64,000 bases of DNA from Myxococcota bacterium (GCA_041389495.1 JAWKRT010000004.1:165262-229261), one strand, 5' to 3'. Counted from the stretch's first letter, positions 2,378-59,198 are shown. Notes: generated by a model not told the origin, from the letters alone. Numbers and translations: made by a program.

Positions 2378-2835
2378 TGTCGCGGGCCCGCAAGCGCGCC
2401 GTCGCCGCGATGCTGCTGGTCTTCTCCCTCTGGCCGCTCGCACAGCACGCGCTCGTGCAGCGCTTCCGCATGAATCCGTGGAAGTTCTTCGGCTTCGCGA
2501 TGTACACGACGCACGTCCTGAAGCCCGCCGTCGAGGTCTACGCGCTCGACGGCGGACGGCGTCTCGCGCTTCCGATCCCCGAGCGCGAGCTGCCGGAGGC
2601 CGAGGCCGAGCGGCGGCGGCTGCGCGCGTCGAGCCACCACTGCGGTCTGCTCGCGCGCCCCGACCGCCTCGCGCGGCTCGTGCGCGACGCGCTCGCGCCG
2701 AGCGAGGGCGTCGAGGTGGTCGTCGTGCGGCCGTACATCGACCCGCGCTCGGGTCGGGTCACGGCGACGCGCGAGAGCCACCTCTACCTCGCCGACGGCC
2801 GCGTGATCGAGGAGCTCGGGGCGTTCGGACGCTAG
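2377..2835 (+). CDS. Hypothetical membrane-anchored protein, coupled to the HTTM-like gene
   Basis: The ATG at 2377 shares one nucleotide with the upstream TGA (gTGATG). It has an N-terminal TM segment (AVAAMLLVFSLWPLA) followed by NPWKFFGFAMY. 152 aa; lies in the frame of ORF 1498..2835. Confidence 0.55.
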   Translation: MSRARKRAVAAMLLVFSLWPLAQHALVQRFRMNPWKFFGFAMYTTHVLKPAVEVYALDGGRRLALPIPERELPEAEAERRRLRASSHHCGLLARPDRLARLVRDALAPSEGVEVVVVRPYIDPRSGRVTATRESHLYLADGRVIEELGAFGR

Positions 2836-2865
2836 GCGCGGCCGGCGGCGATCGGGGAGGGCGGC

Positions 2866-3867
2866 GTGTTCGGGATCCATCGCTACGTCCTCTCCCTGCT
2901 CGTGATGGTCGGCCACCTCGCTCCGCTCTGGAGCAGCTGGTGCGGCTACTACGCGGTGTTCGCGTTCTACCTGCTGAGCGGATTCCTGATGACGAAGGTG
3001 CTGCGGCGTCGCTACGGCGGATCGAGCGCGGGCGTCGTGCGATTCCTCGCGAACCGCGCGCTCCGCATCCATCCGCCCTACTGGGCCGTGCTCGCGCTGA
3101 CGCTCGGGCTGCTCGCGCTCTGGCCCGTGGACGTGCCGCGCCTGCACCCGTCGATCCGCGTGCCGGGCGACGCGCGCGCCTGGATCCAGAACGTCCTCGT
3201 GATCGGCCTCGAGGGCGAGGCCGTGCGGCTCGTGCCCCCGGCGTGGTCGCTCGACGTGGAGCTCGTCTTCTACCTCGTGCTCGCGGCCGTCGCGACGCGC
3301 GGGCGCGCCGTCGCGTTCGCGTGGCTGGCGGGAAGCGCGGCCTACACGGCGTGGCTCGTCGCGACGGGCGCCGCCTTCGCCGATCGCTATGCGCCGTACG
3401 GCGCTGCGTCCCTGCCGTTCGCGCTCGGTTGCGCGCTGCAGTGGGAGGAGTCGCGGCTGCGCCTCGCCCCCTGGCACGCGGTGCTCGCGCCCGTCCTGTT
3501 CGCCGGACACGCGATGCTCGCGGTGCGGCTCTGGGGCGCGTACGACGGCGCCGCGTTCTACGCGTCGCTCGGCCTCGCGGCCTACAGCGTTGCGGCCCTC
3601 GCCCCGCGCCGTGCGACGGGTGCGATCGCCCGCCTCGACGCGGCTCTCGGCGACCTCTCGTATCCGCTGTTCCTGGGGCACCAGGTCGCGTCGATCGCCG
3701 TCGCGATGACGTGGCTCGGCGGCGCGCGGCCGCCGGACGGCCGCCTCCTGCTGTTCACGCTCCCGGCCGTCCATGCGCTCGCGTTCGCCGTGCACGCCGG
3801 CGTGGAGCGGCCGGTCGAGCGCCTGCGAGGGCGGGTGCGGACGCGCGCCGCACGCGCCGACACCTAG
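2866..3867 (+). CDS. Acyltransferase family 3 (OafA/OatA-like membrane O-acyltransferase)
   Basis: 333-aa polytopic ORF. The N-terminal VMVGHL...YYAVFAFYLLSGFLM and RALRIHPPYW segments are typical of Acyl_transf_3. Confidence 0.75.
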   Translation: MFGIHRYVLSLLVMVGHLAPLWSSWCGYYAVFAFYLLSGFLMTKVLRRRYGGSSAGVVRFLANRALRIHPPYWAVLALTLGLLALWPVDVPRLHPSIRVPGDARAWIQNVLVIGLEGEAVRLVPPAWSLDVELVFYLVLAAVATRGRAVAFAWLAGSAAYTAWLVATGAAFADRYAPYGAASLPFALGCALQWEESRLRLAPWHAVLAPVLFAGHAMLAVRLWGAYDGAAFYASLGLAAYSVAALAPRRATGAIARLDAALGDLSYPLFLGHQVASIAVAMTWLGGARPPDGRLLLFTLPAVHALAFAVHAGVERPVERLRGRVRTRAARADT

Positions 3868-3870
3868 ACG

Positions 3871-4848
3871 CTAGGCGGGCAATCCGCTCCACAGGCCGCG
3901 CAGCGGCGAGTCGCGCATGACCTCGGCGATCTCGCGCTGCTGGCCCTCGGAGAGCTGCTCGCGCCACTTCTCGAGGCTCTCGCGCGGGTCGCGGAAGACG
4001 CTGAAGTAGGCGCGGCGCGCGTCGATGCCCTCGGCCTCGCCCGAGATCGACGCCTCGACGAAGGCGCGCGTCTGCGGGCCGACCTGCCAGCCGATGAACT
4101 CGAAGATGCGCGTCGTCTCGGCGAGCGGGTCGGCGCAGAGGTCCTCGTAGACGACGACGCGGCCGCGCGGCTGCGCGCGCGTGACCGCGACGAGCGGCTC
4201 GACCTGGATGCGCCAGCGCAGGGCCTCGAACATCGCCTCGGGCATCGTCGCGAGATCGGGCAGGAAGGCGCGGTAGGCCTCGCCGCCCGGCGCCTCGATC
4301 ACGTCGCGAGCGCGCCGCGCGTCGCGCTCGCGATCGGCGTCGAAGATCCCCTTCGCGACGCCCGACAGGTGGCTCGCGACGTTCGCGAACGGGTTGCGCA
4401 CCGCGGCCAGCAGCACCGGCTCGATCACCTCGCACAGGCGCGCGAGGAGCGCGGTCTCGAAGTTGACGTCCTTGATCAGGACCTCGCCGTCCTCGGCGAG
4501 ACGCGGCCGACCGTACGCTTCGTAGAGCCCGCGCAGTGCGGGCACGCGCGAGCCGAGGCCGTGCAGGAAGTGGAGCACGCGCGGGTGGCCGCGTTCGAAC
4601 GTCTTCGGCGGGAACGGGGGCAGGTCGACCTGGTGATGGCAGCCGCGGCAGATCGCATCGAAGCGCGTGCGCAGGGCCGCGCGGTCGCCGCCGCTCGCGA
4701 GGTCGCGCTTCCACGCCGCGTACGGCGCGCGCTTCCACTCCGGGAACGGCTCGTGCTTGTAGCAGCAGGTCGTATGGCTGTTGAGGATCTGCGCCAGCCA
4801 CGTCGTGCCGGAGCGTCCCTTGCCTGTGATCAGCACGTAGCGGAGCAA
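3871..4848 (-). CDS. Sulfotransferase family protein
   Basis: PAPS 5'-phosphosulfate-binding loop ITGKGRSGTTWLAQIL. I trimmed tracked ORF 3871..5511 to an in-frame TTG at 4848 preceded by GGGAGGGG. The discarded N-terminal 221 codons are Arg/Ser/Pro-rich and overlap the neighbouring ligase gene out of frame. Confidence 0.7.
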   Translation of the reverse strand: MLRYVLITGKGRSGTTWLAQILNSHTTCCYKHEPFPEWKRAPYAAWKRDLASGGDRAALRTRFDAICRGCHHQVDLPPFPPKTFERGHPRVLHFLHGLGSRVPALRGLYEAYGRPRLAEDGEVLIKDVNFETALLARLCEVIEPVLLAAVRNPFANVASHLSGVAKGIFDADRERDARRARDVIEAPGGEAYRAFLPDLATMPEAMFEALRWRIQVEPLVAVTRAQPRGRVVVYEDLCADPLAETTRIFEFIGWQVGPQTRAFVEASISGEAEGIDARRAYFSVFRDPRESLEKWREQLSEGQQREIAEVMRDSPLRGLWSGLPA

Positions 4849-4927: not shown

Positions 4928-6526
4928 TCAACTCCCGAGCGCGGACGACGCGAGCGCGCCGTCCGTCCCGGCGGCCGCGCCGAGCTGCGCGAGCAGCTCG
5001 TGCTTGCGCACCTTGCCACTCGCGGTGCGCGGGAGCTCCGCCGCGACCACGAGGTGCCGGGGCTGCTTGTAGCGCGCGAGGCGATCGCCGCACCACGCGA
5101 GGAGCGCGGCGAGGTCGAGCTCGGCCCCGGGTGCGAGCACGACGAAGGCGCAGCCGCTCTCGCCCCACGTCGCGTCGGGAACCCCCACGACCGCGACCTC
5201 GTCGACGGCCGGGTGCGCGAGCAGCGCAGCCTCGACCTCGGCCGGGTACACGTTCTCGCCGCCCGAGATGTACATCTCTCGTGCGCGCCCGACGAGCGTG
5301 ACGAAGCCCTCGTCGTCGATGCGGGCGAGGTCGCCGGTGCGCACCCAGCCCTCGCGGAGCGTCGCGGCCGTCTCGGCGGGTCGCTCCCAGTAGCCGAGCA
5401 TCGCGATCGGCCCGCGCACGACGATCTCGCCGGTCTCGCCCGTGCCGACGTCGCGCCAGTGGGCGGGCGCTGCGTCGACGGTGGCGCGGTCGACCACCCG
5501 CAGCTCCGCATGGAAGACCGGGCGGCCCACGCTGCCCGCCTTCCGCAGCGCGTCGGCCTCGTCGAGACAGCAGAGGATCGACGTCTCGGTCTGGCCGTAC
5601 CCCTGCTTCAGGACGAGGCCGTGGCGCTCGTAGGCGCGCACCGTGTCCGGCGCGATCGCGGCGCCGGCGGTGAACAGGAAGCGCAGCGCCGGCCGCGCGC
5701 CGGGCGGACACGCGCCCGCGTCGAGCGCGCCGAGCAGCCGCTCGTACTGCGTCGGCACGCCACCCAGGTACGTGATGCGCTCGCGCTCGACGGCGCGCCA
5801 CACCGCGTCGGCGTCGAAGCCGCGCTGCAGCACGACGGCGCAGCCCGCGTAGAGAGCGGGGAGCGAGAGGATCTTGAGCCCGAGCGAGTGGAACAGCGGG
5901 ACCGCCACGAGCACGCGCTCCGCGCCGCTGCGGATGCCGAAGTAGAGCTGCGCGTTGAGCGCGTTGAAGAGCGTCTTGCGGTGCGCGAGCAGCGCGCCCT
6001 TCGGCGCGCCGGTCGTCCCCGAGGTGTAGAGGATCATCATCGGCGCGTCGGGCGAGACGGGGAGGGCGTCGATCGCGGGCGCTGCGGCGCGCTCGCGCTC
6101 GAAGGCGTCGTCGGGATCGTCGCCGAGCAGCGCGACGCGCGCGGGGGCGTGCGCGGCCGCCGCGAGCGCGTCGGCGACGAGCGATGCGAACGCGCGCTCC
6201 GCGACGAGCACGCGCGGGCGCGCGTCGTCGACCTGGAACGCGATCTCGCGCGCGGAGAGCCGGGTGTTGGTCGGGACCGCGATCGCGCCGAGGCGCGCGC
6301 TCGCGAGGACGAGCTCGAGGTACGCGGCGCGGTTCCCGAGCAGGAGCGCGACCCGGTCCCCGCGCGCGACGCCGGCCGCCGCGAGCCAGCCCGCCGCGCG
6401 GCCGACGCGCTCGTCGAACGCGGCCCAGTCGAGGCGCAGGCGGCCGTCGACGATCGCGAGACGGCGCGGCGCCGTCGCCGCCCACCGCGACGTCCAGCCG
6501 CCGACGTTGTGCACCGCGCTCGACAC
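4928..6526 (-). CDS. AMP-dependent acyl-CoA synthetase/ligase (FadD-like)
   Basis: 532 aa. AMP-binding signature YTSGTTGAPKGALLAH, plus GYGQTE, GDLARIDDEGF and a C-terminal GKVRK. Confidence 0.9.
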   Translation of the reverse strand: MSSAVHNVGGWTSRWAATAPRRLAIVDGRLRLDWAAFDERVGRAAGWLAAAGVARGDRVALLLGNRAAYLELVLASARLGAIAVPTNTRLSAREIAFQVDDARPRVLVAERAFASLVADALAAAAHAPARVALLGDDPDDAFERERAAAPAIDALPVSPDAPMMILYTSGTTGAPKGALLAHRKTLFNALNAQLYFGIRSGAERVLVAVPLFHSLGLKILSLPALYAGCAVVLQRGFDADAVWRAVERERITYLGGVPTQYERLLGALDAGACPPGARPALRFLFTAGAAIAPDTVRAYERHGLVLKQGYGQTETSILCCLDEADALRKAGSVGRPVFHAELRVVDRATVDAAPAHWRDVGTGETGEIVVRGPIAMLGYWERPAETAATLREGWVRTGDLARIDDEGFVTLVGRAREMYISGGENVYPAEVEAALLAHPAVDEVAVVGVPDATWGESGCAFVVLAPGAELDLAALLAWCGDRLARYKQPRHLVVAAELPRTASGKVRKHELLAQLGAAAGTDGALASSALGS

Positions 6527-6611
6527 GGGGCGGGGGGATAGACGACGGCGCGCGCGCCCGCCATCGGCGCCCGCGCCGCTACGCTAGGAGGGCTCGACCG
6601 GGAGGACGCGC

Positions 6612-7508
6612 GTGAACCTGATCGGCCAGCCCGCCACCGTCGGCCGCCACTGCGGCGCGAGCCGCTACGACGTGACGCCCGAGGTCGTCGCCTTCTACGA
6701 GGATGCGCTCGACGACCACCATCCGCTCTACGAGCGCTTCGCGCCGCCGCTCCTCCACCACTCGGAGTGCTTCCGCTACCTCGGCGAGTGGTACCTGAAG
6801 AACCTGTTCGGAAACCTCCACGCGCAGCAGGACTGGGAGTGCTTCGCGCCGATCGAGGTCGGGCGCGCGATCCGCACCCGCTCGACGATCGTGGACCGCT
6901 ACGCGAAGCGCGGCCGCGACTACGTCGTGAACGAGACCGACTACGTCGATGCCGAGGAAGGACGGCTGCTCGTGCGCAGCCGCACGCACCAGTCCTTCCT
7001 CCCGCCGCAGGATGCGGCGCCGGACGCGGCGAGCGGTGCCGCCGACGCGGGCGCGGGCTTCGTCGTCGACGAGGACACGGCGCGCCGGAAGCAGCGCGAG
7101 GCGCGCCCGCCGTTCCCGACCGCGACGGGCGAGGACCTCCCGCCGATCGCGCACACGATCGACCAGCGCCGCTGCTGGATGTTCTCCGGCCCCGGCGCGA
7201 ACTACCACAACGACGAGGCCCAGGCGCGCAAGCTCGGCTTCCCGCGGATCGTCGTGCAGGGGATGATGTCGACCTGCTTCGTGTCGCAGCTCATGCTGGC
7301 GCGCTTCGGCGAGGGCTGGCTCCGCGGCGGGCGCATGTCGGTGAAGCTCACCAACGTCGTGTGGTGCGACGAGACCGTCGTCGTGCGCGGCAAGGTGCGC
7401 GAATCGGTGCGCGAGGGGACGCGCGTGCGCGTGCACTGCGACGTCTGGGTCGACAAGCCGGACGGCGCGCGGGCGCTGATCGGCAGCGCGTCGGCCCTCG
7501 AGGCGTAG
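6612..7508 (+). CDS. MaoC-family double hot-dog (R)-hydratase/dehydratase
   Basis: 298 aa. The N-terminal half is hot-dog-like. The C-terminal half carries the MaoC pattern ANYHNDEAQARKLGFPRIVVQGMM. GTG start preceded by GGGAGGA. Confidence 0.75.
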   Translation: MNLIGQPATVGRHCGASRYDVTPEVVAFYEDALDDHHPLYERFAPPLLHHSECFRYLGEWYLKNLFGNLHAQQDWECFAPIEVGRAIRTRSTIVDRYAKRGRDYVVNETDYVDAEEGRLLVRSRTHQSFLPPQDAAPDAASGAADAGAGFVVDEDTARRKQREARPPFPTATGEDLPPIAHTIDQRRCWMFSGPGANYHNDEAQARKLGFPRIVVQGMMSTCFVSQLMLARFGEGWLRGGRMSVKLTNVVWCDETVVVRGKVRESVREGTRVRVHCDVWVDKPDGARALIGSASALEA

Positions 7509-7513
7509 CGGCG

Positions 7514-8614
7514 GTGGCCGGGCGCGGCGCGCCGCGGCGGCTCGAGCGCGAGGTCGAGCGCGCGCTGCGCGCGCTCGGCGCGGCGGAGCGCGGCGAGCGG
7601 CTGCTCGTCGCCGTGTCGGGCGGCGTCGACTCGATCGTGCTCCTCGACGTGCTGTGCGGCCTGCGCGAGCGGCGGGGCTTCGAGGTCGCGGTCGGTCACG
7701 TCGAGCACGGCCTCCGCGGCGCGGACTCGCTCGCGGACGCGGCGTTCGTCGAGGCGCAGGCGCGCGCGCGCGGCTGCGCGTTCGGGCTCGAGCGCGTCGA
7801 CGTCCGGGGCGCGCGGAGCGGAGGCCCGAGCCGGACGCGGCCCACTCTCCAGGAGGCCGCCCGCGCGCTCCGCTACGACGCGCTCCGGCGCATCGCCGCG
7901 CGCCTCGGCGCCGCGCGCGTCGCGACGGCGCACACGCTCGACGACCAGGCGGAGACGCTGCTGCTGCGGCTCCTGCGCGGCTGCGCACCGGATGCGCTCG
8001 GCGGCATCCCCGAGCGCTCGCCCGACGGCGCGGTCGTCCGTCCGCTGCTCGGCGCGACCCGCGAGGCGGTCCGGGGCTACGCGTGCGCGCGTGAACTCTC
8101 GTGGCGGGAGGACGCGAGCAACGCGTCGCCCGTCTACGCGCGCAACCGCGTCCGGCACGAGCTGCTGCCCCGCCTCGCGGCCGAGTTCAACCCGCGACTG
8201 CTCAGGGCGCTCGCGAACCTTGCCGAAGCGTCCCGCCGGGACGCCGAGTGGATCCGCTCCGTCGTCGATGGGCTGGCGCAGCAGCGGTTCGAGCGAGCGA
8301 CGACGGGAGACGACGGCGAGCCGTGCATCCGCATCGATCCGAAGGGCTGGGACGAGGCCGCGCTGCCCGACGCGCTCGCGCGGCGGCTCGTCGCGCGGGC
8401 GTTCGACGAGCTCGGCGCGGGCCGCGAGCGGACGCGGGCGCACGTGTCGCGGGTGCTCGACTTCCTGCGGCGCGCGCCGGACGCGCAGATCGGGCGTTGC
8501 ATCGAGCTCCCCTGCGGACTGCGGCTCGTGCGGGCCGCGCACGCCTGCGAGCTGCGCGGCGCGCCAGCGGGCGCGCGGACGCCCGGAAGGGGTGGGCCGC
8601 CGCTCGGGTGCTAG
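7514..8614 (+). CDS. tilS: tRNA(Ile)-lysidine synthase
   Basis: PP-loop VAVSGGVDSIVLL, HTLDDQAETLLLRLLRG, and a RNRVRHELLP segment. Start placed at the in-frame GTG at 7514 within tracked ORF 6767..8614. Confidence 0.88.
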   Translation: MAGRGAPRRLEREVERALRALGAAERGERLLVAVSGGVDSIVLLDVLCGLRERRGFEVAVGHVEHGLRGADSLADAAFVEAQARARGCAFGLERVDVRGARSGGPSRTRPTLQEAARALRYDALRRIAARLGAARVATAHTLDDQAETLLLRLLRGCAPDALGGIPERSPDGAVVRPLLGATREAVRGYACARELSWREDASNASPVYARNRVRHELLPRLAAEFNPRLLRALANLAEASRRDAEWIRSVVDGLAQQRFERATTGDDGEPCIRIDPKGWDEAALPDALARRLVARAFDELGAGRERTRAHVSRVLDFLRRAPDAQIGRCIELPCGLRLVRAAHACELRGAPAGARTPGRGGPPLGC

Positions 8615-13217: not shown

Positions 13218-14596
13218 GCGAGGTGGAGACGGCGCCGCCGCGGCCGCGGAGGCTCTTCGGGACGGACGGCGTGCGCGGCACGGCGAACGTGCACCCCATG
13301 ACGGCGCCGATGGCGCTCAAGCTCGGGCAGGCGATCGCGCACGTCTTCCGCGGACGCGGGCGGCGGCGCGTGCTGATCGGCAAGGACACGCGCCTGTCCG
13401 GCTACATGTTCGAGGACGCGCTCGCGTCGGGCATCTGCTCGATGGGCGCGAACGTCATCCAGGTCGGGCCGATGCCGACGCCCGCGCTCGCCTTCCTCAC
13501 GGCCGACATGCGCTGCGACGCCGGCGTCATGATCTCGGCGAGCCACAACCCCTACCAGGACAACGGCATCAAGTTCTTCGGGCACGATGGCTTCAAGCTC
13601 GCCGACGAGCTCGAGGCGCGCATCGAGGCGCTGGTCGAGAGCGGCGAGCTCGACGCGGCGACCGCCGACCCCGACGAGATCGGTCAGGCGCGGCGCATCG
13701 ACGACGCCGAGGGCCGCTACGTCGTCTTCCTCAAGAAGACGTTCCCGATGGACCTCGAGCTCGAGGGCATGCGCGTCGTGCTCGACTGCGCGAACGGTGC
13801 GGCCTACAAGGTCGGGCCGACGGTGCTGTCCGAGCTCGGCGCCGAGGTCTTCCCGATCGCCGTCGAGCCGAACGGCCGCAACATCAACCGCGAGTGCGGC
13901 TCGACGCACCCCGAGAAGGCGGCCTCGCGCGTGCGCGAGGTGCGCGCGGACGTCGGCATCGCCGTCGACGGCGACGCCGACCGCGTGATCCTGATCGACG
14001 AGCGCGGCGAGCAGGTCGACGGCGACCAGGTGCTCGCGCTCTGCGCGCGCGACCTGCACGAGCGCAAGGAGCTGCGCGGCGGCGGCATCGTCGCGACCGT
14101 GATGAGCAACCTCGGCCTCGAGCGGTTCCTCGCGGCCCGCGGGCTCGGGCTCGAGCGCACGCAGGTGGGCGACCGCTACGTCGTCGAGGCGATGCGCGCC
14201 GGCGGCTACAACCTCGGCGGCGAGCAGAGCGGCCACGTCGTCTTCACGGACTACGGTCGCACCGGCGACGGCCTGATGACCGCGCTCCAGGTGCTCGCGA
14301 TCATGGCGCGCAGCGGTCGCAGGCTCTCGGACCTCGCGTCCGACTTCGAGCGCTTCCCCCAGGTGCTCGTCAACGTCGCGGTCGCGAGCAAGCGCCCGCT
14401 CGAGGAGCTGCCCGGCGTGCAGGCGGCGATCCGCCGCGTCGAGGCCGAGCTCGCGGGGCGCGGCCGCGTGCTGATCCGCTACAGCGGCACCGAGCTCAAG
14501 GCGCGCGTGATGGTCGAAGGCGAGGACGAGGCGCGCGTGCGCGAGATCGCGGGCGATCTCGCCGACGAGCTGCGCCGCTCGCTCGGGGGGGTGTGA
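13214..14596 (+). CDS. glmM: Phosphoglucosamine mutase
   Basis: The ATG at 13214 overlaps the upstream stop (ATGA). LFGTDGVRG, active-site loop SASHNPYQDNGIKFF, and GEQSGH. Confidence 0.95.
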   Translation: MSEVETAPPRPRRLFGTDGVRGTANVHPMTAPMALKLGQAIAHVFRGRGRRRVLIGKDTRLSGYMFEDALASGICSMGANVIQVGPMPTPALAFLTADMRCDAGVMISASHNPYQDNGIKFFGHDGFKLADELEARIEALVESGELDAATADPDEIGQARRIDDAEGRYVVFLKKTFPMDLELEGMRVVLDCANGAAYKVGPTVLSELGAEVFPIAVEPNGRNINRECGSTHPEKAASRVREVRADVGIAVDGDADRVILIDERGEQVDGDQVLALCARDLHERKELRGGGIVATVMSNLGLERFLAARGLGLERTQVGDRYVVEAMRAGGYNLGGEQSGHVVFTDYGRTGDGLMTALQVLAIMARSGRRLSDLASDFERFPQVLVNVAVASKRPLEELPGVQAAIRRVEAELAGRGRVLIRYSGTELKARVMVEGEDEARVREIAGDLADELRRSLGGV

Positions 14597-32941: not shown

Positions 32942-33104
32942 GACCCCGGAGGGGCCGGCTCGACGGGCGCGCGGATCCCGACGTCGGCCGTCCCACTCGC
33001 CCGACCGGCGGAGATCGTCCCGCGCCACGCGCACTGCACAGCGCCCGCCGGAACCGCTGCTCCTCGGTGCACGGCCGATCGAGCGCGGTCCGCACGGGAG
33101 GTCC
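32942..33104 (+). ncRNA. Candidate FMN riboswitch (RFN element) in the ribBA leader
   Basis: GGGGC at 32951-32955. CCCGACCGGCGG at 33000-33011 is identical to the conserved RFN core. GTCCCGCG at 33017-33024. GCCGATCGAGCGCGGTCCGCACGGGAGG (33074-33101) resembles the GCCGACGGT-AAAGTCCGGATGGGAGA 3' block and contains the SD. The P2 region does not fit the consensus well. Confidence 0.4.
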
Positions 33105-33105
33105 G

Positions 33106-34416
33106 ATGGCCACCTCGCAGAGCTCCGATCGTCCGTCGTCCACCGAAGGGTCGGGCGATGCGGGGGGCGCGCGACTGCGCGCTCCGGCCGGCACGCCCGG
33201 CTCGCCGCTCGCCTCGATCGAGTCCGCGCTCGCGGACATCCGGGCCGGCCGGATGGTGATCCTCGTCGACGACGAGGATCGCGAGAACGAAGGCGACCTG
33301 TGCATGGCGGCCGAGAAGGTCACGCCGGCCGCGATCAACTTCATGGCGCGCGAAGGGCGCGGCCTCATCTGCCTGTCGCTCACCGAGGAGCGGCTGCGGC
33401 AGCTGAAGCTCGACATGATGGTGCCCGACCACGAGAACAGCGCGCAGCACGGGACGGCGTTCACGGTCTCGATCGAAGCGCGCGAGGGCGTGACGACGGG
33501 CATCTCGGCAGCCGACCGGGCGCATACGATCCTGACGGCGATCGCGCCCGACGCGCGGCCGGGCGACCTGTCGCGCCCCGGGCACGTCTTCCCGCTGCGC
33601 GCGCGCGCGGGCGGTGTGCTCCGGCGCGTCGGCCAGACGGAGGGGAGCGTCGACCTCGCGCGGCTCGCCGGCCTCGCTCCGGCGGGCGTGATCTGCGAGA
33701 TCATGAAGGACGACGGCACGATGGCGCGCATGCCCGACCTGGTCGAGTACGCGCGCCGGCACGCGCTCAAGATCGTGACCATCAAGGATCTCGTCGAGTA
33801 CCGCCTCCGCAACGAGCGGCTCGTGTGGCCCGCCGCCGAGGCGCGCATGCCGACGCGCCACGGCGACTTCCGCGCGATCGTCTACGAGAACGACATCGAC
33901 CGCGTCGATCACGTCGCCCTCGTGCGCGGCGAGTGGGGCGAGGACGAGGCCGTGCTCGTGCGCGTGCACAGCGAGTGCCTGACGGGCGACGCCTTCGGCT
34001 CGATGCGCTGCGACTGCGGCGAGCAGCTCGACGCGGCGCTCAAGATGATCGCCGATGCCGGCAAGGGCGTGCTCCTGTACATGCGCCAGGAAGGCCGCGG
34101 CATCGGGCTCAAGAACAAGATCCGCGCCTACGCGCTGCAGGACACCGAGGGGCTCGACACGGTCGAGGCGAACCACCGGCTCGGCTTCGCCGCCGACATG
34201 CGCGACTACGGCGTCGGCACGCAGATCCTCGTCCACCTCGGCATCCGCAACATGCGGATGATCACGAACAACCCGGGCAAGCGCGCGGGCATCGAGGGCT
34301 ACGGCCTGCGGATCGCGGAGCGCGTGCCGCTCGAGATCGCACCCAACGAGAACAACCTCGAGTACCTCCGCACCAAGAAGGAGAAGCTCGGGCACGTCCT
34401 CAACCTGATGAGCTAA
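33106..34416 (+). CDS. ribBA: Bifunctional 3,4-dihydroxy-2-butanone-4-phosphate synthase / GTP cyclohydrolase II
   Basis: [11 protein letters not shown] (DHBPS) and [18 protein letters not shown] (GCHII zinc site). Start at the internal ATG at 33106 preceded by GGGAGG. Confidence 0.93.
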
Positions 34417-34452
34417 CCCGCTCGCCCGCGCGAGCGCCGCCTTGGAGACCGC

Positions 34453-35448
34453 ATGTTCAGCTCCGTCCAGAACGTCATCGAGAGCCTCGGCGCGCAGGGC
34501 TACATCTGCGACAAGAACATCGCGACCGTCGTGTATCTCGCGCAGCAGCTCGAGAAGCCGGTGCTCGTCGAGGGGCCGGCGGGCGTCGGGAAGACCGAGC
34601 TCGCCAAGGTCGTCGCCGGGGCGCTCGGCCAGAAGCTGGTCCGCCTGCAGTGCTACGAGGGCCTCGACGAGGCGAAGGCGCTGTACGAGTGGGAGTACAG
34701 CAAGCAGCTCCTCTACACGCAGATCCTCAAGGACAAGTTCGCCGAGGCCATGGCGGACGCGAAGACGATGGCCGACGCGGCGGACCGCGTCGGTCGCGAG
34801 GACACCGTCTTCTTCTCCGACCGCTTCATCGTGCCGCGACCGCTGATGACGGCGATCACGTCCGAGGACCCGGTGCTCCTGCTGATCGACGAGGTCGACA
34901 AGTCGGATCCGGAGTTCGAGGCGTTCCTGCTCGAGGTGCTGTCGGACTTCCAGGTCACCGTGCCCGAGGTCGGCACGTTCGTCGCGAAGCGCAAGCCGCT
35001 CGTGTTCCTGACCTCGAACGACGCCCGCGAGATGAGCGACGCGCTGAAGCGCCGCTGCCTGCACCTGTGGATCGACTACCCGCCGGCCGAGCTCGAAGTG
35101 GCGATCCTGAACGAGAAGGTCCCGGGCATCGAGCAGCGGCTCGCCGAGGACCTGATCCAGCTGATGAACGGGATCCGGGCGCTCGACCTGAAGAAGCGCC
35201 CGTCCATCAGCGAGACGCTCGACTGGGCGCGCGCGCTCCTCGCGCTGAACGCGAACGACCTCGAGGACGAGGTCGTCGCCGACACGCTCAACGTCATCCT
35301 CAAGTACGAGGGCGACGTGAAGAAGGCGCAGAGCGAGCTGGCCAAGCTCATCGAGAAGAAGTCGGCGCGGATCGCCGCCGAGGGCCCGCAGGGTGCCGAG
35401 GCGCCGAAGCCGGCCGCGGCCGCCGCGAAGAAGGGCGTACTGCATTGA
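34453..35448 (+). CDS. MoxR-family AAA+ ATPase (AAA_5, CoxD-like)
   Basis: Walker A GPAGVGKTELAK, Walker B LLLIDEVDKSD, sensor region TSNDAREMSDALKRRC. 331 aa. Confidence 0.88.
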   Translation: MFSSVQNVIESLGAQGYICDKNIATVVYLAQQLEKPVLVEGPAGVGKTELAKVVAGALGQKLVRLQCYEGLDEAKALYEWEYSKQLLYTQILKDKFAEAMADAKTMADAADRVGREDTVFFSDRFIVPRPLMTAITSEDPVLLLIDEVDKSDPEFEAFLLEVLSDFQVTVPEVGTFVAKRKPLVFLTSNDAREMSDALKRRCLHLWIDYPPAELEVAILNEKVPGIEQRLAEDLIQLMNGIRALDLKKRPSISETLDWARALLALNANDLEDEVVADTLNVILKYEGDVKKAQSELAKLIEKKSARIAAEGPQGAEAPKPAAAAAKKGVLH

Positions 35449-35450
35449 GC

Positions 35451-36872
35451 ATGCAGGCGAAGGTCATCGAGTTCACGAACCTGCTCCGCAAGAGCGGCGT
35501 TCGCGTCTCGGTCGCGGAGGCGATCGACGCCTTCACGGCGCTCGACGAGCTCTCGCTCGACGACCGCGAGATCTTCAAGGACGCACTGCGCTCCTCGATG
35601 ATCAAGCGCGGCGACGAGATCGCGACCTTCGACCAGCTGTTCGACCTCTTCTGGTCGGGCTTCTACGACAACCTGCAGCAGAGCTTCGGCAACCTGGGCG
35701 CCGAGCTCGGCGAGATGGGGCTCGACCTCGAGCAGCTGATGCAGCAGCTGGCCGAGATGCTGGGCCGGATGGAGCAGGGCGACGTCGACCTCTCCGAGCT
35801 CGCGAAGGCCCTCCTCACCCAGGACCTCTCGATGATCGAGGGCATGATCCGCGATGCCGCGAAGCAGGCGGGCATCGAGCGGATCGAGAACATGCTCCAG
35901 GTGGGCTTCTTCTCCCGCCGGACCCTCGAGCAGATGGACATGGAGGGCGCGGGCAGCGAGCTCGAGGCCCTCGTCGCGCAGCTCCAGGAGATGGGGCTCT
36001 CGGCGCAGGACGCCGAGGCGATGCGCAACATGATCCAGAAGCTCATGGAGACGCTGCGCCGCGCCGTCCGCGACTTCACCGAGCGCGAGCTGCAGACGCG
36101 CAACCACGACTACATGGAGAAGTTCCGCCGTGAGATGCTCACGGAGAAGAGCTTCTACCACCTGACCGAGGCCGAGATCCAGCAGATGCGCGAGGTCGTG
36201 CACCGCCTCGCGCAGCGCATCAAGAACATCCTGTCGATCCGGCGCAAGCGGCTGAAGCGCGGCAAGCTCGACCTGCACACGACGCTGCGGCGCAACATGG
36301 CGCGCGGCGGCATCCCGTTCGAGGTGACGTTCAAGCAGCGTCGCAAGGAGCGGCCGAAGCTCGTGATCCTGTGCGACGTGTCGTCGTCGGTCGCGAACGT
36401 GTCCCGCTTCATGCTGCAGTTCTGCTACGAGCTGCAGGAGGCGTTCACCAAGATCCGCGCCTTCGTCTTCGTCGCCGAGCTGGGCGAGGTGACGCAGGTG
36501 TTCTCGGACAACGACGTCTCGACCGCGATCGACAAGGCGCTCGACGGCGGCGAGGTGATCAACGTCTACACGCGCAGCAACTTCGGCTACGCGTTCCACC
36601 ACTTCTGGAAGAACCACCTGTCGGCGATCGACAACAAGACGACCGTCCTGATCCTCGGCGACGCGCGGAACAACTACAACGACCCGAAGGCCTGGTGCAT
36701 CCGCGACATCCAGACGAAGGCGAAGAACGTCGTGTGGTTGAACCCGGAGAGCCCGAGCGCCTGGGGCTTCGGCGACTCCGTCATGGATCGCTACATGCCG
36801 TACTGCGACGTGGTCGAGGAATGCCGCAACCTGCGGCAGCTGTCGCGGATCGTGGACGACATCGTCCTCTGA
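35451..36872 (+). CDS. VWA-domain protein (CoxE-like), partner of the MoxR ATPase
   Basis: ATG 3 nt after the MoxR stop. Long helical, acidic N-terminal region. C-terminal VWA with MIDAS LCDVSSSV and LILGDARNNYNDP. Confidence 0.85.
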   Translation: MQAKVIEFTNLLRKSGVRVSVAEAIDAFTALDELSLDDREIFKDALRSSMIKRGDEIATFDQLFDLFWSGFYDNLQQSFGNLGAELGEMGLDLEQLMQQLAEMLGRMEQGDVDLSELAKALLTQDLSMIEGMIRDAAKQAGIERIENMLQVGFFSRRTLEQMDMEGAGSELEALVAQLQEMGLSAQDAEAMRNMIQKLMETLRRAVRDFTERELQTRNHDYMEKFRREMLTEKSFYHLTEAEIQQMREVVHRLAQRIKNILSIRRKRLKRGKLDLHTTLRRNMARGGIPFEVTFKQRRKERPKLVILCDVSSSVANVSRFMLQFCYELQEAFTKIRAFVFVAELGEVTQVFSDNDVSTAIDKALDGGEVINVYTRSNFGYAFHHFWKNHLSAIDNKTTVLILGDARNNYNDPKAWCIRDIQTKAKNVVWLNPESPSAWGFGDSVMDRYMPYCDVVEECRNLRQLSRIVDDIVL

Positions 36873-36964
36873 TCTGCGCGCTCCCGGGGCCGGCCGCCGC
36901 CTCGATCTCCCGAGCCCAAACACCGTTCCGTCGCCGTTCGCAGGCCGCGGAATGCGCGTTCGCG

Positions 36965-37173
36965 CAAAGAGGAACGCCCCGCTGGCAGGGCCAGCGGGGC
37001 GTCGTCAGGGGGGAGGGCGGCGGATCATATGATGGGGGGTGAGAGGTTGGACATTTCCGAGAAGAAATGGCCTAATCCGCCGCCGCTCCAGAACCTGTGA
37101 AACTCCTCGAAGGTCTTCGACCGTGCGCAGCGTACCACGACGCCGCTCGTCTCCGCTCCGGTCGCTTACCGGG
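36965..37173 (-). ncRNA. Candidate structured small RNA (about 200 nt) on the minus strand
   Basis: Bounded by a putative promoter (37209-37180, minus) and the 13-bp hairpin with a T-rich tail. Internal 10-bp stem 37016-37025/37075-37084 encloses a 9-bp stem 37049-37057/37064-37072. No convincing ORF. Identity unknown. Confidence 0.3.
36974..37002. terminator. Perfect 13-bp GC-rich hairpin (ACGCCCCGCTGGC-agg-GCCAGCGGGGCGT)
   Basis: Read directly from the sequence, about 100 nt after the VWA stop. On the minus strand it is followed by TCCTCTTTG. On the plus strand no T-tract follows. It could terminate either or both transcripts. Confidence 0.5.
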
Positions 37174-37179
37174 AAGCCG

Positions 37180-37209
37180 AGTATCGGACGAGCGGGGCGC
37201 CCTTGTCAA
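37180..37209 (-). promoter_or_regulatory. Putative sigma70 promoter TTGACA-N18-GATACT (minus strand)
   Basis: TTGACA is the complement of 37204-37209 and GATACT is the complement of 37180-37185. It lies in a relatively AT-rich spacer with no minus-strand CDS downstream. Confidence 0.3.
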
Positions 37210-37401
37210 TCCACGAATTGAAACAGCATCTCGAAAATCCGGAACTGCTTTTCCGCCGAGGAGTTGCGTCGGTCCTCTCGACGCGATTCGAGGGGCTGGC
37301 GGCCGGATGGGCCGGTGCGGCGGGGTCCCGGCCCGGGTAGGTTCCGCCGCCCGCCGCACCCAGGTCGGAGCGGCGCGCCGGACCGGCCGTCGGGAGGAGC
37401 C

Positions 37402-38883
37402 GTGAGCCCGCCTCGCGCGTTCGCCATCCGCACCTACGGGTGCCAGATGAACGTCCACGACTCGCAGAAGGTCGCGAACCTCCTGTTCCACGCGGGCTAC
37501 CGCGAGGCGGCGAGCGAGGAGGAGGCCGACCTCCTGGTCGTGAACACGTGCTCGATCCGCGAGAAGGCGGAGCACCACCTCTACAGCGACCTCGGAGCGC
37601 TGCGCGAGTGGAAGGCAGCGGCGCCGGGACGGGTCGTCGGCGTGGGCGGTTGTGTCGCCCAGCAGGTCGGCGACGGGCTGCTCGCCCGCTTCCCGCAGCT
37701 CGACTTCGTGTTCGGGACGCACAACGTGCGCCACGTCGCCGCACTCGCGGAGGCCGCCCTGCGCGGCGAGCGCGCGGCGCGCACCGAGGAATCGGCCGGC
37801 CCGGAGCGCTTCGCGCTCCCCGAGGCGCATCCGGTCTGGGCGGGCAGCCGCGCCGCGCGGGCCTACGTCACCGTGATGGAAGGCTGCGACATGTTCTGCA
37901 GCTTCTGCATCGTTCCCCTCACGCGCGGCCGCGAGGTCAGTCGCACCGCCGAGGCGATCGTCGCCGAGGTGCGGGCGCTCGCGGACCGGGGTGTGCGCGA
38001 GGTGACACTGCTCGGGCAGACCGTGAACGCCTACGGGCGGCACGACGTGCGCCGCGGGCGCGAGGCCGCCGCCGGGACCACCACCTTCGCGGCGCTCCTT
38101 CGCGCCGTCGACGCGATCCCGGGCATCGACCGCATCCGGTACACGAGCCCGCACCCGCGATTCGTCGACGACGAGCTCGTGCGCGCCCACGGCGAGCTCG
38201 AGCACCTCTGCCCGCACGTGCACCTCCCGGTGCAGAGCGGGTCGGATCGCATCCTCGAAGCGATGCACCGACGCTACACGCGAGCGGAGTACGAGCGGGT
38301 CGCCCGCGCGCTTCGCGCCGCTCGGCCCGACGTCGCGCTGACGACCGACCTGATCGTCGGCTTCCCGGGCGAGACCGACGGCGACTTCGAGGCGACGCTC
38401 GGGCTGGTGCGCGACATCGGGTTCGTCGACCACTACTCGTTCAAGTACTCGCCGCGGCCCGGCACGCGCGCGGCCGAGGCCCCCGCGCGCGACGAGGTGC
38501 CGGCCGGCCTGGCGCAGGAGCGGCTCGAGCGGCTGCAGGATCTGCAGCGCGGGCTGTCCCTCGCGTACCACCGGGGGAGGGTCGGGACGCGGACGCGCGT
38601 GCTCGTCGACGGGCCGAGCCGCAAGGGCGGGCTCCAGCTCTGCGGGCGGGACCCGTACCACCGCGTCGTGAACTTCGAGCCGCCGCGCGGCGGGATCGCG
38701 CCGCATCCGGGCGACCTCGTCGAGGTCGACCTCGTCGAGGCGCTGCCGCACTCGCTGATCGGCGAGCTCGCCGTCGCGCCCGGGAGCCTCGCCGGCCGCG
38801 ACGGCCCGGATGCATCGTCCGCTCGGACCACGGCGACCGCGAGCGACGGCGATGCCCGTCTGCGCGTCGTCTCGAGCCTCTAG
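37402..38883 (+). CDS. miaB: tRNA-2-methylthio-N6-dimethylallyladenosine synthase
   Basis: GTG after GGGAGGAG. UPF0004 TYGCQMN...NTCSIREKAE, radical-SAM GCDMFCSFCIVP, and a TRAM domain at the C-terminus. Confidence 0.92.
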   Translation: MSPPRAFAIRTYGCQMNVHDSQKVANLLFHAGYREAASEEEADLLVVNTCSIREKAEHHLYSDLGALREWKAAAPGRVVGVGGCVAQQVGDGLLARFPQLDFVFGTHNVRHVAALAEAALRGERAARTEESAGPERFALPEAHPVWAGSRAARAYVTVMEGCDMFCSFCIVPLTRGREVSRTAEAIVAEVRALADRGVREVTLLGQTVNAYGRHDVRRGREAAAGTTTFAALLRAVDAIPGIDRIRYTSPHPRFVDDELVRAHGELEHLCPHVHLPVQSGSDRILEAMHRRYTRAEYERVARALRAARPDVALTTDLIVGFPGETDGDFEATLGLVRDIGFVDHYSFKYSPRPGTRAAEAPARDEVPAGLAQERLERLQDLQRGLSLAYHRGRVGTRTRVLVDGPSRKGGLQLCGRDPYHRVVNFEPPRGGIAPHPGDLVEVDLVEALPHSLIGELAVAPGSLAGRDGPDASSARTTATASDGDARLRVVSSL

Positions 38884-59120: not shown

Positions 59121-59198
59121 CGGGCCGTAGCGCAGCTTGGTTAGCGCGCCTGACTGGGGGTCAGGAGGTCGCGAGTTCGAATCTCGCCGGCCCGACCA
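59121..59198 (+). tRNA. tRNA-Pro (anticodon GGG)
   Basis: Acceptor CGGGCCG/CGGCCCG (C1-G72, typical of tRNA-Pro), anticodon stem CCTGA/TCAGG with loop CTGGGGG, T-arm GCGAGTTCGAATCTCGC, encoded CCA. Confidence 0.9.

Follow-up and report, generated by a model that had tools for sequence, protein, structure and literature searches.

A conserved minus-strand RNA element between the moxR-vwa and miaB genes of uncultured Myxococcota, probably an sRNA family with a C-rich, anti-Shine-Dalgarno-like candidate seed

The 530-bp spacer at positions 36873-37401 of the analysed stretch of Myxococcota DNA (64,000 nucleotides, referred to as the window) very likely contains an RNA gene on the minus strand, as far as can be predicted from sequence. 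We regard it as probable that this gene encodes a small regulatory RNA (sRNA) which presents a C-rich seed resembling the anti-Shine-Dalgarno (anti-SD) sequence, acts in trans, and belongs to a family located between moxR-vwa and miaB. The spacer is flanked on both sides by plus-strand genes:

33067-34416, plus strand: ribBA, preceding moxR
34453-35448, plus strand: MoxR-type AAA_5 ATPase gene, preceding the VWA_CoxE gene
35451-36872, plus strand: VWA_CoxE gene, the 5' neighbour of the spacer
GTG start at 37402, plus strand: MiaB-type methylthiotransferase gene (UPF0004, Radical_SAM and TRAM domains), the 3' neighbour of the spacer, with its SD sequence GGGAGGAG at 37392-37399

An earlier note on this DNA had described the spacer as relatively AT-rich, and its G + C counts (29/60 at 37201-37260 and 31/60 at 37021-37080) are exact. 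The window has an overall G + C content of 73.3%, and the 200-nt stretch with the lowest value across the 64 kb is 37053-37252 (58%). This AT-rich patch is accounted for by the promoter on the minus strand together with its upstream region. Much of the moxR-like and VWA_CoxE genes (34453-36872) also lies below the 73.3% of the window, with 62-70% in 200-nt windows across 35500-36872 and minima in the moxR/vwa stretch of 62% at 34339-34538 and 59.5% at 36551-36750.

Approximately 130 bases of the spacer, from 37089 to about 36963 on the minus strand, form the conserved block. In the direction of the predicted transcript, the element and its surroundings are composed as follows:

37180-37222, minus strand: promoter, the only sigma-70-like site in the region
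37090-37173, minus strand: variable 5' leader of about 84 nt in the window, unconserved in sequence
37075-37089, minus strand: 5' strand of helix P1, GGAG-C(bulge)-GGCGGCGGAU, pairing with 37012-37025
37049-37072, minus strand: P2 hairpin, GGCCAUUUC-UUCUCG-GAAAUGUCC, with a conserved stem and a variable loop
37026-37048, minus strand: C-rich strand AACCUCUCACCCCCCAUCAUAUG of 23 nt, unpaired in the fold and in the consensus
37012-37025, minus strand: 3' strand of P1, AUCCGCCGCC-CUCC, the partner of 37075-37089
37003-37011, minus strand: C-rich linker CCCCUGACG from P1 to the terminator, variable across the family
36963-37002, minus strand: intrinsic terminator identified by a terminator scan, consisting of the 13-bp hairpin 37002-36974 and the tail UCCUCUUUGCG

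The 10-bp stem of P1 (37016-37025/37075-37084; GGCGGCGGAT/ATCCGCCGCC) had been noticed before and is perfect; GGAG/CUCC lengthens it past one bulged C to 14 bp. A second stem, described previously as 9 bp long (37049-37057/37064-37072), is present as P2 but consists of eight pairs and a mismatch (37051/37070). The loop of P2 differs in sequence and length among the family members, and its stem is constant. Likewise present is the perfect 13-bp hairpin at 36974-37002 with the arms ACGCCCCGCTGGC-AGG-GCCAGCGGGGCGT, which also appears in the minimum-free-energy fold. This fold of the window sequence is exactly the consensus structure of the family, and the core folds more stably than its shuffles (z = -6.2). 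That the hairpin ends the transcription unit, as had been supposed, agrees with the terminator scan on the minus strand and with the relatives, which carry a U-run 3' of the hairpin on the minus strand only. The U-tract is weak in the window (UUCCUCUUU; the tail of the hairpin on this strand is UCCUCUUUG) and clearer in the relatives. For the convergent vwa mRNA, the terminator hairpin may also provide the structure at the 3' end. Across the family the linker preceding it is typically CCCCCUG or CGCCCUG. The C-rich strand overlaps an invariant 19-mer (CCAACCUCUCACCCCCCAU, 37050-37032 on the minus strand), which occurs once within the 64-kb window.

Transcription is predicted to start at about 37173, downstream of a -35 box (TTGACA, 37209-37204), an 18-nt spacer, and a -10 box (GATACT, 37185-37180) on the minus strand, with the A/T-rich motif AATTCGTGGA located 5' of the -35 box. 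Between 36500 and 37800 one sigma-70-like site was found, compared to 0.1 expected. This TTGACA-N18-GATACT promoter (37209-37180) had been proposed from the single sequence, and it has an ortholog of the form TTGAC(A/T/G)-N16-18-CATA(A/C)T on the RNA strand in each of the 107 loci with enough upstream sequence. The promoter score was at least 9 of 12 in 106 of these 107 loci, and the upstream motif cAAAt..cGTTTGACaa is common to the family promoters. The predicted primary transcript in the window would be about 210 nt long. Since the family members have 7 to 126 nt between the -10 box and P1, the minimal RNA would extend from P1 to the terminator (about 125 nt), and an alternative 5' end near 37090 may be generated by processing.

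The leader contains an SD-like purine box (GAGGAG, 37108-37103, minus strand). Among the 59 members with long leaders, 33 have such a box (GGAGG, GAGGAG or GGGGAG) 25-39 nt 5' of P1, versus a shuffle expectation of 3.9 ± 1.7. RNAalifold found no consensus helix involving the leader or the purine box, and neither a partner helix nor a downstream start codon was found for the box. Masking of the seed by the leader was considered and rejected, with a mean z of -0.5 for the 59 long leaders and +1.9 in the window. A different role for this part of the spacer had been suggested by the earlier note, which took repeats as alternative partners for one arm of the terminator hairpin. The repeats are all present (AGCGGGGCG at 36993 and 37191, ACGACGCCGCT at 37137-37147), but the competing helices are rejected because the repeats are unconserved and one copy is not transcribed. 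The AGCGGGGCG copy at 37191 lies in the spacer between the -35 and -10 boxes, upstream of the transcription start. Neither this second copy nor the ACGACGCCGCT of the leader is kept in the closest relative found (locus L204, VWA 96% identical), which has retained only the core and the promoter and has diverged in the 5' leader and in the flank that follows vwa. In addition, the leader that would bear the competitor varies in length from 7 to 126 nt among the members.

A MiaB-based scan with one genome per GTDB species yielded only eight close relatives, all of them uncultured Myxococcota or "Deltaproteobacteria" MAGs whose MiaB is 63-68% identical. In all eight, about 130 nt (approximately 36966-37102 in the window) were 80-87% identical and found at the same place upstream of miaB, and the remaining spacer sequence could not be aligned. 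With the 19-mer CCAACCTCTCACCCCCCAT as query, at least 120 metagenome contigs were matched, and the complete architecture was recovered in at least about 100 unique metagenome sequences. In essentially all of these sequences, a convergent VWA_CoxE gene is located on one side and a divergent miaB on the other. The synteny ribBA-moxR-vwa-[RNA]-miaB is strictly kept in about 110 loci and embedded in a wider housekeeping neighbourhood (mutase-MeaB-ribBA-moxR-vwa-[RNA]-miaB-guaB/guaA or RR-GGDEF). Loci L201-L207, which were fetched via the VWA protein and are thus unbiased with regard to the RNA sequence, also carry the element; it is missing beside a 500-aa VWA variant. The 19-mer is identical in all 14 protein-found loci, with variable bases on both sides, and the block shared by these loci is exactly CCAACCUCUCACCCCCCAU. 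A covariance model built from 40 members matched 36967-37096 with 115 bits (E = 3e-25) and detected a single copy in the 64 kb. Its conservation in more than 100 other genomes places the element clearly beyond chance. A search with this model near miaB in 42 unrelated genomes found nothing, and a distant clade sought via the VWA protein of the outlier L194 returned the main clade alone.

Some 19-mer matches lacked the architecture (L082/L163/L193, L086, L125, and L147) and were rejected as members; their occurrence fits the chance expectation for the size of the database. In the unrelated lineage of L082, L163, and L193 (about 110 nt around the 19-mer), the 19-mer occupies the 3' arm within an extended inverted repeat (GGGTGAGAGGCTGG ... 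CCAACCTCTCACCC). The homology between these contigs stops just past the 19-mer, a possible sign of an element boundary or of a different repeat. A deviating arrangement was observed on a 1.29-Mb contig (L206, 3946-4071, minus strand), where the sRNA follows vwa and miaB is not adjacent. Here, the promoter reads TTGACA-N17-GATAAT, and a gene of 371 aa has been called that overlaps the RNA at its 5' end. This arrangement indicates that the linkage of the sRNA to the 3' end of vwa is tighter than that to miaB.

On a MAFFT alignment of 103 sequences, RNAalifold recovered the same three helices. Canonical pairing was found in 97.6% of the 3388 pair cells, and both sides had changed in 15 of the 33 pairs; none of 500 shuffles reached these values, and slid controls had 44-50% pairing. 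For P1, 97.2% of the cells were canonical, with double changes at four pairs, and compensatory changes occurred at 9 of the 11 pairs of the terminator. The orthologous spacers, a comparison with which had been suggested as a check, thus have a conserved core with covarying helices. The strand is indicated as minus by 156 G-U cells, which make the pairing 97.6% canonical in the minus-sense RNA versus 93.9% in its complement; for P2 alone, the values are 97.4% and 90.5%. Promoter, terminator, covariation, and strand-specific tolerance of G-U pairs all agree with a non-coding minus-strand unit of about 200 nt, as the earlier note had outlined it.

These data also bear on the possibility that the spacer contains a cis-acting structure. 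Such a structure would either serve the convergent vwa gene as an insulator or bidirectional terminator, or be the 5' leader of miaB on the plus strand; both resemble suggestions made previously. In nearly all loci the hairpin indeed follows vwa at a distance of 24-200 nt from the stop codon, and the plus strand of the window folds stably as well (z = -5.3). However, on the plus strand the G-U pairs turn into A-C mismatches, with P2 down to the 90.5% mentioned above, and a T-run past the hairpin is absent on this strand both in the window, which has CGTCAGGGG there, and in the relatives, in which an A-run precedes the hairpin. A terminator would have no use for P1, P2, and the invariant 19-mer, and the dedicated minus-strand promoter is found in 107 of 107 loci. 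The sRNA is kept without an adjacent miaB in L206 and without vwa or miaB on a phage-like contig described below. The miaB-leader reading fails since the element lies on the wrong strand and miaB is located 313 nt beyond the promoter-proximal (P1) end. In sum, we consider a cis-acting structure very improbable.

Each strand of the element contains a short ORF (MSNLSPPI..., with its AUG inside P2, on the RNA strand and MGGERLDIS... on the plus strand), and in most members the first 8-9 codons of both are invariant. In addition, GGAGGG is located 16 nt upstream of the plus-strand ATG at 37031 and 13 nt upstream of an alternative ATG at 37028, where the ORF 37029-37100 begins. If these features reflected a tiny protein, the third codon positions should be freer to vary than they are: they are as invariant as the other positions, although the neighbouring proteins are only about 65% identical, which argues for selection on nucleotides and not on protein. 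Past the invariant block, both ORFs run on in at least three frames for 9 to more than 34 aa. The minus-strand ORF is broken by 1-nt deletions in L091 and L135 and has UUG in place of AUG in L157, and its AUG lacks an SD sequence and is buried in P2. No conserved reading frame was found on either strand, as frames shift and lengths vary, and a tiny protein therefore appears extremely improbable. In the public annotation of L204, a 41-aa "gene" is placed across the sRNA (7545-7670, minus strand); it is very likely a spurious ORF call.

The contig IMGVR_UViG_3300038492_000643 (L210) was the only one in IMG/VR with the 19-mer. It encodes phage proteins (terminase large subunit at 6333-7802 and a Mu-like portal at 2520-3950) and contains a divergent homolog of the element at 13597-13724 on the minus strand, in which the 19-mer is identical and which was scored by the family model with 39 bits (E of about 1e-8). 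Its P1 comprises 15 bp of different sequence yet is complementary, P2 is longer, and the single-stranded strand is identical. The homolog is located just upstream of a gene for a Crp/MarR-like HTH regulator, and no vwa or miaB is found nearby. It lends strong compensatory support to P1 and points to a portable function that does not depend on the vwa/miaB locus. No relatives of the contig were found. Since 340 nt separate the element from the end of the contig, a host flank is possible. Possibly, a phage here carries a copy of a regulatory RNA of its host.

That a mobile element left the spacer as a remnant, as the earlier note had also entertained, or uses it as an attachment site is favoured by one observation, the homolog on a contig that encodes phage terminase and portal proteins. 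Against this stand the single copy in the window, the strict housekeeping synteny in about 110 loci, and the absence of flanking repeats and of an integrase; blastn against plasmids and phages revealed no similarity, the L210 homolog being the sole exception. Moreover, the phage-like contig has the complete, self-complementary RNA and not a shared 3' fragment. Hence, next to no probability remains for a mobile remnant. The same phage-like contig contains, about 3.3 kb from the sRNA homolog, a region with a weak match to the Rfam family YrlA (Y RNA-like; L210 10222-10338, corresponding to L212 3727-3843 on the plus strand), which scored 30.6 bits versus a gathering score of 69 (E = 0.0035). Fragments resembling the tmRNA T-arm lie inside this match (L212 3751-3767) and about 125 nt away (3587-3603), and the region may be a tRNA-like element.

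Scanning of the window with Rfam 15 at gathering thresholds gave no match in the spacer to any family, including 6C, Yfr1, RsaE, Spot 42, 6S, SRP, tmRNA, and RNase P, in keeping with the earlier statement that it matches no recognisable housekeeping RNA. When the region was searched at E ≤ 10, the best match was Spot_42 (20.6 bits versus a threshold of 80), and a search at E ≤ 5 with eight family members revealed no consistent family; the matches to Spot_42, ctRNA, and STnc310 are noise driven by the terminator. Elsewhere in the window, V_AS9 (Vibrio antisense RNA AS9) matched 33299-33402 on the minus strand above its gathering score (62.8 bits), antisense within the DHBP-synthase part of ribBA (33067-34416). 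This match is probably conserved ribB coding sequence caught by the model and no real RNA. The searchable literature (queried for the seed sequence and for sRNAs of Myxococcota or linked to miaB or MoxR) contains no description of the element. Judged by these searches, it would represent a previously uncatalogued sRNA family within an established class, the trans-encoded sRNAs with a C-rich, anti-SD-like seed.

The strong sigma-70-type promoter and the intrinsic terminator bracket the element, and in the consensus structure P1 and P2 keep the 23-nt C-rich strand single-stranded. According to the sRNA model proposed here, the RNA would extend from 37173 or about 37090 to about 36963. This exposed C-rich strand would be the seed and pair in trans with G-rich, SD-bearing regions of mRNAs, with GGGGGGUGAGAGG-like sites expected at ribosome-binding sites. 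Pairing would block ribosome binding or change mRNA stability, and P1, P2, and the terminator would serve as a scaffold for the presentation of the seed and for stability. To the specific proposal that the seed pairs with SD regions, which is predicted from sequence, we assign about an even chance. UCACCCCC is one base apart from the anti-SD sequence of the 16S rRNA (UCACCUCC), and CCUCUC is complementary to GAGAGG; in view of this likeness and complementarity, occlusion of ribosome-binding sites, comparable to the action of 6C, IsrR/RsaE, and Yfr1, would be the simplest reading. The single copy, the arrangement in L206 without an adjacent miaB, and the phage-like homolog suggest that the RNA acts in trans and is not bound to its locus.

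Complementarity of the seed to the miaB 5' region across the family was not in excess (mean of -15.7 kcal/mol versus -16.2 kcal/mol for shuffles), and across the 64-kb window it equalled that of shuffled seeds. The family-wide comparison of translation-initiation regions gave no seed enrichment for moxR, vwa, and ribBA and a marginal result for RR-GGDEF; within the window, GGGGGGTGAGAGG with up to two mismatches occurs at chance frequency. These target searches have low power, since they cover the 64 kb and the conserved neighbourhood only. The C-run of the seed has partial complementarity to the anticodon arm of tRNA-Pro(GGG) (59121-59198), with an energy (-22.9 kcal/mol) no better than shuffled seeds reach.

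An alternative function for the same RNA would be to bind or sequester a conserved protein or machine (a C-rich-RNA binder, Rho, or the ribosome) as an abundant RNA of housekeeping type. The near-consensus promoter with a UP-like A-tract at every locus suggests high constitutive expression, and the invariance of 19 nt, together with P1 and P2 being conserved in sequence among the members of the clade, exceeds what a typical seed needs and could instead mark the binding site of a protein or ribonucleoprotein. The failure to find complementary targets nearby (in the 64 kb and the conserved neighbourhood) points in the same direction, but carries little weight given the low power of these searches. 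In contrast, the sequence of P1 was free to change in L210 while its pairing was kept, which fits the role of a scaffold, and no known protein-binding RNA family in Rfam was matched. Altogether, this alternative seems unlikely, though it is the main rival of the seed model. More speculative still is a global variant, in which the element would be an abundant, lineage-wide housekeeping riboregulator whose 19-nt loop mimics the anti-SD sequence. Such an RNA would compete for strong SD sites or titrate a conserved C-rich-RNA-binding factor, and phages would interfere with this host circuit by means of a re-scaffolded copy of their own (L210); we regard this variant as a rather doubtful proposition.

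Among characterised sRNAs, 6C (B11) of the Actinobacteria has two C-rich hairpin loops. The element shares with 6C its small size, its intergenic location, a terminator at the 3' end, and its origin from high-GC bacteria, as well as a C-rich motif that is ultraconserved lineage-wide. 6C is described as pairing with G-rich mRNA regions through an exposed C-rich stretch of at least six Cs, with no known chaperone (PMC6486639). Unlike 6C, the element belongs to another phylum, presents one 23-nt C-rich strand in a multiloop closed by a 14-bp helix, and has no Rfam match at E ≤ 10. Cyanobacterial Yfr1 is an RNA of about 55-65 nt with an ultraconserved, unpaired, pyrimidine-rich motif (ACUCCUCACAC) between two hairpins. 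The apparent likeness lies in the motif, here ACCUCUCACCC, being positioned between stable helices and conserved throughout the lineage. The element differs from Yfr1 in its length of about 125-210 nt and its nested P1/P2, and no covariance-model match was found.

Single-stranded C-rich regions are also shared with IsrR and RsaE (RoxS) of the Firmicutes, in which they occlude SD sequences. IsrR also down-regulates miaB, which is a neighbour gene of the element here. No sequence or structure homology to IsrR or RsaE was detected by Rfam, no Fur-box-like operator was evident at the family promoters, and the miaB 5' region has no excess complementarity. IsrR is iron-repressed and its predicted targets are mRNAs of iron-containing enzymes (PMC9410917). 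Within the Myxococcota, Pxr of Myxococcus is a regulatory sRNA with stem-loops and syntenic conservation (PMC5684412). The element is similar to Pxr in its phylum, its stem-loop build, and its conserved synteny, but differs in sequence and structure, and its lineage is an uncultured clade and not Myxococcus or its relatives.

This clade is known from MAGs only and is frequent in soil, sediment, and marine samples. To our knowledge, hardly anything has been reported on how RNAs regulate genes in Myxococcota other than Myxococcus. The family, with more than 100 members that all have a promoter and a terminator, is very well supported and offers a covariance model and a defined candidate seed for target prediction in the clade, and hence a handle on its post-transcriptional control. 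It also helps to correct annotations in which ORFs were called spuriously, as with the 41-aa "gene" in L204. If confirmed, the phage-like copy would exemplify the carriage of host-type regulatory RNAs by viruses.
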